This document shows, in pieces, positions 15,401 through 16,087 of a stretch of DNA of 16,087 nucleotides. The position numbers are program-made. Within the stretch, counting starts at the first letter, position 1. Every line of letters begins with the position of its first letter. Source of the DNA: a virus (lineage: Duplodnaviria; Heunggongvirae; Uroviricota; Caudoviricetes); the IMG/VR virus record IMGVR_UViG_2526164603_000014. One strand, 5' to 3'.

Positions 15401-16087
15401 CCGCTGACGTGGTGTATGACACACCTGTTGTGATTTTTTCCATCTGGTACATACCCCGTCTCCCGCAATCCGGAAGCTCACAACATGAAAAAGGCCAGCA
15501 GCTGTTTACTGATGGCCCTGACTCCCCGTTACAGCATCATGACCGATTCGGGTTGAGGTTCAGTCGCATCGGCGACCGGTGATTCAGGCTGAACTTCACC
15601 GCTCTCTGCGGTGGTATCTCCCGCTTCAGTCGGTGGCTCTGCCTGTACACCAAGCAGTTCATCCAGAATGGCATCCACTTCTGCATCAAGACGCGCTTCC
15701 AGGTTATGGCGAAGTTTCTGTTTCAGTGCGCTCCGGACTTCTTCAGAGCGCAGGACGTCCTTCACTGCCTCTGCAGTGACCAGGGATGTAATTTCTGACA
15801 TGGGATTTTCTCGTCGAAAGGTGTGATTAAGAAAGTTGCCGCTAAATGAGCGGCTCTTCGGGTTTGCTTCCGGCTGACTGACTGGCGCTGATTTTCTCAG
15901 CGGCCCTTTTGTCAATCTGTCTGCGCCAGAAGTCACGCATGGCCCTGTACCCACCCGAAAGGAGATACAGCACACAGACCACCGTACAGAAGTACAGCAT
16001 TAACTGGTTCAGAAATGTCATAATTTCTTTCCGTTATTGTTGACAATAAGAACTGTTTTCATTTAAAAAACCAGAGCACGAAAGTAT

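Follow-up and report, generated by a model that had tools for sequence, protein, structure and literature searches.

Two small genes and an intrinsic terminator between the nanS-p esterase gene and the lysis genes of a 933W-type Stx2a prophage

The DNA considered in this report is a stretch of 16,087 nucleotides (nt) from a virus of the class Caudoviricetes (IMG/VR record IMGVR_UViG_2526164603_000014), which at its full length is referred to here as the window. Our subject is a pair of small open reading frames (ORFs) near the end of the window, predicted to encode proteins of 59 and 90 amino acids (aa) of the families DUF1378 and DUF826, respectively, together with the intrinsic transcription terminator that follows them. 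The 888 bases around the pair exhibit 100% DNA identity to Escherichia coli O157:H7 strain Z1830 and an identity of 99.7% to the corresponding DNA of phage 933W, VT2-Sakai/Sp5 and EDL933; judged from its sequence, the window represents an Stx2a prophage of the 933W type from E. coli O157:H7. The gene order in records of the 933W, Sakai and Z1830 type is Q, pR', tRNAs, stx2A, stx2B, nanS-p, the two small genes, S, R, ant, Rz/Rz1, bor and terminase. The gene nanS-p (L0105/z1466), which encodes an esterase of the SASA family (sialate O-acetylesterase), lies just beyond the end of the window, and this end falls 66 nt upstream of the 59-aa ORF, within the nanS-p/DUF1378 spacer. The downstream neighbor of the pair is S, a 71-aa ORF with its ATG at 15452, which opens the lysis cassette. 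Full-length copies of the cassette occur in 788 of the 5,426 complete E. coli genomes (~15%), and parts of the 888-bp query match up to 14 places within a single E. coli genome.

A first-pass annotation of the window, made from the sequence alone, had described the two genes as a moron-like cassette in the cargo ("moron") zone of lambdoid phages, between the late promoter and the holin gene. The zone was correctly recognized, in that the pair does lie between Q/pR' and the lysis genes, but the late promoter is not its neighbor. The annotation of the flanking records places pR' ~5.5 kb upstream of the pair, beyond the tRNAs, stx2AB and nanS-p, with stx at ~2.6 kb upstream. The coordinates of the features discussed here are collected in Table 1.

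Table 1. Location of the features in and around the spacer between nanS-p and S (positions are those of the window)
Feature	Position	Strand	Basis
Pinholin gene S, class II (phage 21-type), dual start M1/M4	15237..15452	-	PF04971, 112.8 bits; RefSeq "class II holin family protein"
Intrinsic terminator (predicted) closing the nanS-p/DUF1378/DUF826 module	15488..15519	-	Sequence, fold, intergenic variants
DUF826 gene, 90-aa acidic cytoplasmic protein (predicted)	15529..15801	-	ORF list, Pfam, RefSeq, AlphaFold2
DUF1378 gene, 59-aa bitopic inner-membrane protein (predicted)	15842..16021	-	ORF list, Pfam, RefSeq, AlphaFold2
Inverted repeat with 7-bp arms, TTATTGT-TG-ACAATAA	16034..16049	.	Sequence; core TTGACA 16040-16045 on +
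Putative promoter and first bases of an antisense PasC-like small RNA	16040..16087, running past the window end (L002 8931-9048, minus)	+	Z1830 neighboring sequence, scanner, comparison with known small RNAs

The 59-aa ORF (translated as MTFLNQLMLYFCTVVCVLYLLSGGYRAMRDFWRRQ...) begins with a hydrophobic stretch that is followed by a basic segment. Its product matches PF07125 (DUF1378) over the whole length of the protein (residues 1-59 on profile positions 1-59) with a score of 134 bits and an E-value of 2e-39, the Pfam cut-off being 25 bits for this family as well as for PF05696, discussed below; it is also assigned to PHROG 494 and appears in RefSeq as WP_000143458.1, "DUF1378 family protein". 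AlphaFold2 models the protein as one unbroken helix that extends from residue 2 to residue 50, with a mean predicted local distance difference test score (pLDDT) of 76, of which approximately residues 5-25 (LMLYFCTVVCVLYLLSGGY) are hydrophobic and the continuation to about residue 50 is basic. Alignment of the variants reveals a conserved SGGY motif within the hydrophobic helix and a conserved AAEKISASQSA motif in the basic helix, the AAEKISAS part of which is invariant. Because the positive charges come after the hydrophobic helix, the protein is predicted to be a bitopic inner-membrane protein with its N terminus outside and its C terminus inside the cell, which agrees with the single-pass membrane protein of the first-pass annotation. 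The DUF1378 stop codon lies within a 6-bp hairpin (GCCGCUCAUUUAGCGGC, 15838-15854 on the minus strand) that the scanner marked as terminator-like; this hairpin is limited to the 933W-type variants, is missing from the other intergenic variants and is probably not functional as a terminator.

The 90-aa ORF is the inner part, initiated at the ATG at 15801, of a 148-aa ORF that a mechanical ORF search starts at a GTG codon (15529-15975). The original 933W record contains the same over-extended, GTG-started version of the DUF826 ORF as a single 148-aa gene, L0106, which overlaps DUF1378 out of frame; RefSeq now annotates two genes in place of L0106, and the counterparts of the pair in Sakai Sp5 are ECs_1210-ECs_1211. 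The protein matches PF05696 (DUF826) with 101.6 bits (E-value 2.6e-29, residues 1-68 on profile positions 1-70 of 75), and is also represented by PHROG 311 and by RefSeq WP_001290212.1. Both small genes had thus been located correctly by the first-pass annotation, on the minus strand according to the ORF list, and the larger product is as acidic as was proposed (~20 Asp or Glu residues vs 7 Lys or Arg residues). The statement that neither protein could be recognized did not survive the profile searches that the same annotation had suggested, since both are members of Pfam families and are so annotated in RefSeq.

Structure prediction, which had likewise been suggested, yields for the DUF826 protein two helices at residues 10-17 and 20-49 (pLDDT up to 91) and a disordered tail (pLDDT <50), and the alignments delimit residues 1-52 as a conserved helical N-terminal domain. 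The tail (15529-15645, minus strand) is rich in Pro and Glu, varies in length and carries insertions and deletions among the variants, and its C-terminal tip is hydrophobic, reading M-M-L, M-M-M or T-M-L in nearly all of them. By analogy, such a tail may be likened to the docking peptides of SSB-type proteins, in which an acidic tail ends in a hydrophobic tip. A Foldseek comparison of the DUF826 model with BFVD returned nothing better than E = 4, a sequence search of the PDB with both proteins returned nothing below E = 0.25, and neither protein was matched by the models of NCBIfam or by the defense-system models of PADLOC. YdfR of E. coli K-12 was considered as a Qin homologue of DUF826 and set aside, being a DUF1327 protein.

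Both ORFs are intact in 76 loci that represent 61 distinct sequences, with lengths of 59-64 aa for DUF1378 and 90-96 aa for DUF826. The median ratios of nonsynonymous to synonymous substitution rates (dN/dS, Nei-Gojobori method) are 0.19 for DUF1378 and 0.23 for DUF826, the latter divided into 0.13 for the helical N-terminal part and 0.31 for the acidic tail, as compared with 0.07 for the holin control; the sequence pairs are not independent of each other, and the values are therefore descriptive only. The annotated frame gives the lowest ratio of all six frames. Four of the other five yield values of 1.5-2.9, the exception being the antisense frame with a shared wobble position (0.29-0.34), and the holin control behaves alike.

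These results bear on the possibility that the ORFs are annotation artefacts and that the region is an untranslated leader or RNA element of the late transcript. Such a reading could appeal to the weak Shine-Dalgarno sequences of the pair (GGAAAG and GAGAAA), to a literature search that found no proteomic or ribosome-profiling evidence for it, and to a narrow taxonomic range, an exhaustive profile search of 1.84 billion representative proteins having detected only 54 clusters with DUF826. It is opposed by the restriction of purifying selection to the annotated frames, by the maintenance of intact ORFs in the 61 variants and also in versions of ~50% identity from Citrobacter and Mu-like prophages, by the placement of the conserved residues on the predicted helices, and by the lack of any Rfam family over the region (a search of the whole window gave no match at the gathering thresholds and just a spurious snoRNA match at relaxed thresholds). 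We regard an untranslated origin as very improbable and the non-coding reading as untenable; the pattern of substitution identifies both of the small ORFs as true protein-coding genes that are subject to purifying selection.

From the DUF826 stop codon toward S, the RNA reads UAA-CGGGGAGUC-AGGGCCAUCAGU-AAACA-GCUGCUGGCCU-UUUUC. The hairpin that it contains (15493-15519, GGGCCAUCAGU-AAACA-GCUGCUGGCCU) consists of a G+C-rich stem of 11-12 bp with one U.C mismatch and a loop of 5 nt, and is followed directly on its 3' side by a tract of five U residues (15488-15492), from which a further 35 nt lead to the start codon of S. This is the intrinsic terminator, at the same distance from the holin gene, that the first-pass annotation had recognized; the mismatch within the stem kept a consensus terminator scanner from detecting it. 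The hairpin is present in all 14 intergenic variants, and 95% of the cells are paired in an alignment of 11 of these variants, where every change is one-sided and pair-preserving and several variants convert the U.C mismatch to a pair. In combining a G+C-rich hairpin with a U-tract at a conserved position, it has the form that is expected of a rho-independent terminator. In the Mu-like prophages described below, a non-homologous hairpin with a U-tract is found at the corresponding position behind DUF826. Two identifications with known RNAs were rejected. The terminator is not the 3' end of AsxR, which lies 282 bp 3' of stx2B, outside of the window, where Rfam does find it; nor do the terminator and the 3' end of DUF826 correspond to PasA/PasC, as these small RNAs (sRNAs) are antisense and adjoin the esterase stop codon.

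The two genes are consistently accompanied by an esterase gene. In 163 lambdoid loci from IMG/VR and from assemblies, the order is without exception nanS-p, DUF1378, DUF826, holin and endolysin wherever the flanking sequence extends far enough, over a range of esterase identities that extends from 47% to 100%; the same order is kept in the most divergent members and in Citrobacter prophages (3 loci). A search of 5.8 billion proteins found both families to be nearly confined to Escherichia and Shigella. Remote members of DUF826 occur in Citrobacter, Salmonella and Pantoea and in a second E. coli subfamily; a scan of the GTDB species-representative genomes for DUF826 gave no confirmed locus. The second E. 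coli subfamily resides in Mu-like prophages (five loci, L171-L175, e.g. L175 2671-5279), where the order is gin, SASA esterase, DUF1378, DUF826, terminator, a 66-aa soluble ORF (orf66), com and mom, with no holin or endolysin gene near the trio. The DUF1378 coding sequence is present in all five, including two that lack a gene call for it, and the three proteins of the trio are 53%, 53% and 47% identical between the lambdoid and Mu-like versions. The Mu-like context shows that the trio moves between phage types.

Pairwise distances within the lambdoid set provide a further measure of this association. For DUF1378 and for the N-terminal domain of DUF826, the Spearman coefficients are 0.4-0.6 when the distances are compared with those of the SASA esterase, vs only 0.11-0.16 for the comparison with the holin. 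The fixed gene order, the existence of the Mu-like trio and the distance correlations, taken together, indicate that the unit that is inherited and moved, in lambdoid prophages of Escherichia, Shigella and Citrobacter as well as in Mu-like prophages of E. coli, comprises nanS-p, DUF1378, DUF826 and the terminator. The terminator marks the boundary between the module and the lysis cassette, with an apparent recombination boundary before S. In the light of this analysis, the two-gene cassette with its own terminator, as initially annotated, retains its terminator but becomes the distal part of a three-gene module that includes nanS-p. Two apparent gene fusions encountered in the survey, P0008 (DUF1378 with DUF826) and P0101 (holin with DUF826), proved to be frameshift or deletion artefacts and were for this reason left out of the structure predictions.

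The Z1830 prophage carries a sense terminator between stx2B and nanS-p and none between nanS-p and DUF1378, so that co-transcription of the pair with nanS-p is to be expected; with one terminator just before nanS-p and another after DUF826, the block of three genes is bracketed by terminators. (In the interval between stx2B and nanS-p of locus L002, at 6581-6887, Rfam detects STnc100, a PasD relative, in the sense orientation and AsxR in the antisense orientation.) A consensus-pattern search, which weak or non-sigma-70 promoters could escape, detected no sigma-70-like promoter on the coding strand between stx2B and S in the Z1830 prophage or in the window, and autonomous expression of the pair in the lysogen is accordingly unsupported. 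From the lack of a recognizable promoter of its own and the terminators on both sides, we infer that the trio is transcribed mainly by Q-modified RNA polymerase from pR'.

With these observations in hand, we consider it probable, although with considerable room for doubt, that the region contains the two distal genes, with the terminator, of a cargo module of three genes in a 933W-type Stx2a prophage, whose transcription and function might be as follows. After prophage induction, Q-modified, terminator-resistant polymerase would read through the trio, in the manner reported for nanS-p. In the lysogen, the terminator before S would keep unmodified transcription of the stx/nanS-p region out of S-R-Rz. 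The DUF1378 and DUF826 proteins would most likely act with, or for, the NanS-p esterase, possibly as a membrane-tethered pair in which the basic cytoplasmic helix of DUF1378 binds the acidic DUF826 helix. The esterase gene nanS-p (z1466) is reported to be among the late genes that are most strongly induced after norfloxacin treatment (review PMC8065619). A more specific proposal, which we put forward tentatively and consider unlikely in this full form, is that DUF1378 and DUF826 constitute a complex of two helices that is tethered to the membrane, is dedicated to NanS-p as its partner and perhaps controls where, when or how this esterase, which has no signal peptide, acts or is released. What is called "nanS-p" would then be a three-gene system whose transfer between lambdoid and Mu-like phages has taken place as a whole.

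Several observations weigh against this assignment of the pair to a NanS-p module or against parts of it. Prophages PP2 and PP5 of the enteropathogenic E. coli (EPEC) strain E2348/69 carry the esterase and a 92%-identical holin with no DUF pair between them, which means that the esterase does not need the pair. In Salmonella and Pantoea (L176-L180), a tail-less DUF826 of 59-61 aa occurs alone, downstream of lysis cassettes and without SASA or DUF1378, so that the esterase link is not universal for the DUF826 domain. A covariation test of the terminator hairpin in the 11 aligned variants detected no double compensatory changes and a score not above that of shuffled alignments; with its changes being one-sided only, the case for terminator function rests on form and position rather than on covariation. 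A weak promoter, or one of a type other than sigma-70, may have been overlooked by the pattern search. In an uninduced Sakai culture, a microarray study found ECs1211 to be regulated with growth phase (PMC2241611), a signal that could reflect expression in the lysogen, spontaneous induction or cross-hybridization among ~11 paralogues; the literature search brought up no expression data on the two genes beyond this mention. The contact between DUF1378 and DUF826 is a possibility drawn purely from their charges and predicted helices. As a separate observation on the Salmonella loci, the gene after DUF826 encodes a secreted protein of 192 aa, and there is a hydrophobic ORF of 35 aa (L179 4829-4936) immediately upstream.

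Alternatively, the pair might have a life of its own or serve the holin, roles that we consider less likely than a partnership with the esterase. As a free-standing moron, the pair would have its own promoter in the nanS-p/DUF1378 spacer, would be switched on in the repressed prophage and would benefit the lysogen by superinfection exclusion or some membrane function, with the terminator shielding the holin gene. The location of the terminator directly after the pair, the absence of the pair from the EPEC prophages that have both esterase and holin, the growth-phase variation of the ECs1211 signal and an A/T-rich spacer segment that has a strong -35 sequence on its opposite strand and might in principle work in both directions would all be compatible with such autonomy. 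It is nevertheless distinctly unlikely, in view of a pattern search that uncovered no sigma-70-like promoter on the coding strand of the window or of the full spacer, a spacer with no sense terminator to separate the pair from nanS-p, the failure of any defense-system model to match, and the finding that the pair always accompanies a SASA esterase gene, in ~160 lambdoid loci as well as in 5 Mu-like loci and 3 loci of Citrobacter. Measured against the definition of a moron given by Juhala et al. 2000, as cited in PMC4104026, the pair does have a distal terminator and is present in some, not all, similar phages, PP2 and PP5 of EPEC being without it. It resembles classical lambdoid morons such as stx downstream of pR' in its cargo-zone location, distal terminator and variable presence, and differs from them in that the pattern search found no promoter of its own and in that the transferable unit consists of three genes including nanS-p.

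The proximity of the holin gene allows for another role, in which the membrane-bound DUF1378 and the cytoplasmic DUF826 would modulate the triggering of pinholin S in the style of an antiholin or holin chaperone. Known antiholins and lysis regulators (S21-71, T4 RI, P1 LydB, P2 LysA/LysB) are small proteins, either membrane-bound or cytoplasmic, that are encoded beside the holin. In keeping with this pattern, the pair adjoins a PF04971 holin gene in every lambdoid locus and has the same orientation within the late operon, the helix of the small membrane protein DUF1378 contains a conserved SGGY, and the tail-less DUF826 genes of Salmonella and Pantoea are also found near lysis cassettes. The pair shows no sequence or profile similarity to these regulators, however, and DUF1378 exhibits neither a relation to class II holins in profile comparisons nor a match to any holin family in Pfam; it has thus neither the holin-family similarity nor the combination of a transmembrane domain and endolysin linkage by which holins and antiholins are classified. 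The terminator and the apparent recombination boundary separate the pair from S, its divergence is nearly uncorrelated with that of the holin, the EPEC prophages have the 92%-identical holin without the pair, and in the Mu-like prophages the pair comes after the esterase gene and has no holin gene near it, a context that weakens the lysis-timing idea. We assign this role a probability that is small and lower than that of an autonomous moron.

Apart from the module itself, the nanS-p/DUF1378 spacer contains what might be the beginning of another transcription unit, directed against the late genes. The inverted repeat that the first-pass annotation had reported upstream of the pair is indeed present, but its arms are not conserved across 36 variants of the spacer; what is conserved is the core, GTCAAC/GTTGAC, which corresponds to an antisense TTGACA. 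On the plus strand, this TTGACA is followed by a spacer of 16-18 nt and an A/T-rich box resembling a -10 sequence. About 95 nt past this box, outside of the window in Z1830 DNA, the scanner flagged a hairpin that adjoins the nanS-p stop codon, and as a run of seven A residues precedes it on the sense strand, it would be an intrinsic terminator for the antisense strand. The invariant TTGACA and a homologous terminator (GCCAGCG...CGCTGGC-U7) are also found by alignment at the loci of PasA, PasC and, as a third comparison locus, EcOnc52 of Sakai Sp4. PasA and PasC are validated Hfq-dependent sRNAs of EPEC (PMC8550237 Table S6), which a 2026 preprint locates between esterase and holin-lysozyme genes.

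The architecture found here, with an antisense promoter and terminator in the interval from the esterase stop codon to the next late gene, is that of PasA/PasC, and the best explanation for the inverted repeat is that it belongs to a PasC-like promoter on the antisense strand. The 933W-type element shares with the Hfq-dependent sRNAs PasA/PasC of EPEC and EcOnc51/52 of enterohemorrhagic E. coli (EHEC), which are antisense to the esterase-holin spacer, the same TTGACA and the same antisense terminator at the esterase stop codon. In EPEC, the sRNA region replaces the DUF pair, whereas the counterpart in 933W-type phages lies upstream of the pair, mostly outside of the window, and has a different RNA body; this body aligns poorly with those of PasA, PasC and EcOnc52, such that just the promoter and terminator are alike. 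The EHEC sRNA list contains no Sp5 sRNA at these coordinates and there is no Rfam match. We regard the element as a candidate PasC-like sRNA of the 933W-type phages.

The lysis region downstream of S has several features of its own. The gene R for the signal-anchor-release (SAR) endolysin (14698-15232, minus strand) carries an insertion of 1 nt near 14954 (...GGAGAAAAACATACAAAG...), which splits it into ORFs of 116 aa and 98 aa. The insertion is the sole difference from strain Z1830 over 9,889 nt. A search of the 5,426 complete E. coli genomes found it in none of them, the closest match reaching 98.8% over 81 nt, which leaves an error of sequencing or a private, lysis-inactivating mutation of very recent origin. 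A gene for a P22 antirepressor-like protein, ant (13858-14427, minus strand), with P22_AR_N and ORF11CD3 domains, is located between R and Rz as in 933W. Between ant and Rz lies a very hydrophobic ORF of ~48 aa (13712-13861, minus strand), which has no Pfam match and is listed in Z1830 as the RefSeq hypothetical protein WP_000539792.1; it is another small membrane peptide within the lysis cassette. In many related loci the S-R interval contains other inserts of ~0.4-1.3 kb, which in two Citrobacter loci (L183 and L184) include a DUF1327 gene.

The genes of the pair are the same genes, in the same position between nanS-p and S, as those of 933W, Sakai Sp5 and RefSeq records. They are already known, with thousands of genomes listing them under the names DUF1378 and DUF826, and the finding is in this respect real but ordinary, with no new kind of system. 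Their matches to PF07125 and PF05696 (PHROGs 494 and 311) are full-length, and these families carry no function. Literature searches by locus tags and by DUF names found no functional study; two surveys of Stx phages touch on the region briefly, one of them naming both DUF families and the other remarking that the genes from stx to the lysis genes warrant further investigation. What the current analysis adds is the fixed pairing of DUF1378 and DUF826 with SASA-family prophage esterases, including those of Mu-like prophages, an association that is not tied to the holin, and the attribution of the inverted repeat to a putative promoter for an antisense sRNA. It also corrects the older annotation of 933W at L0106. 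The pair sits between the Shiga toxin genes and the lysis genes in a pathogen prophage that is among those most intensively studied, and its assignment to a NanS-p module in place of the lysis cassette or a free moron would narrow the range of experiments that are worthwhile. The terminator predicted before S bears on the question of how lysogens might avoid leaky expression of the lysis genes from transcription of the toxin region.

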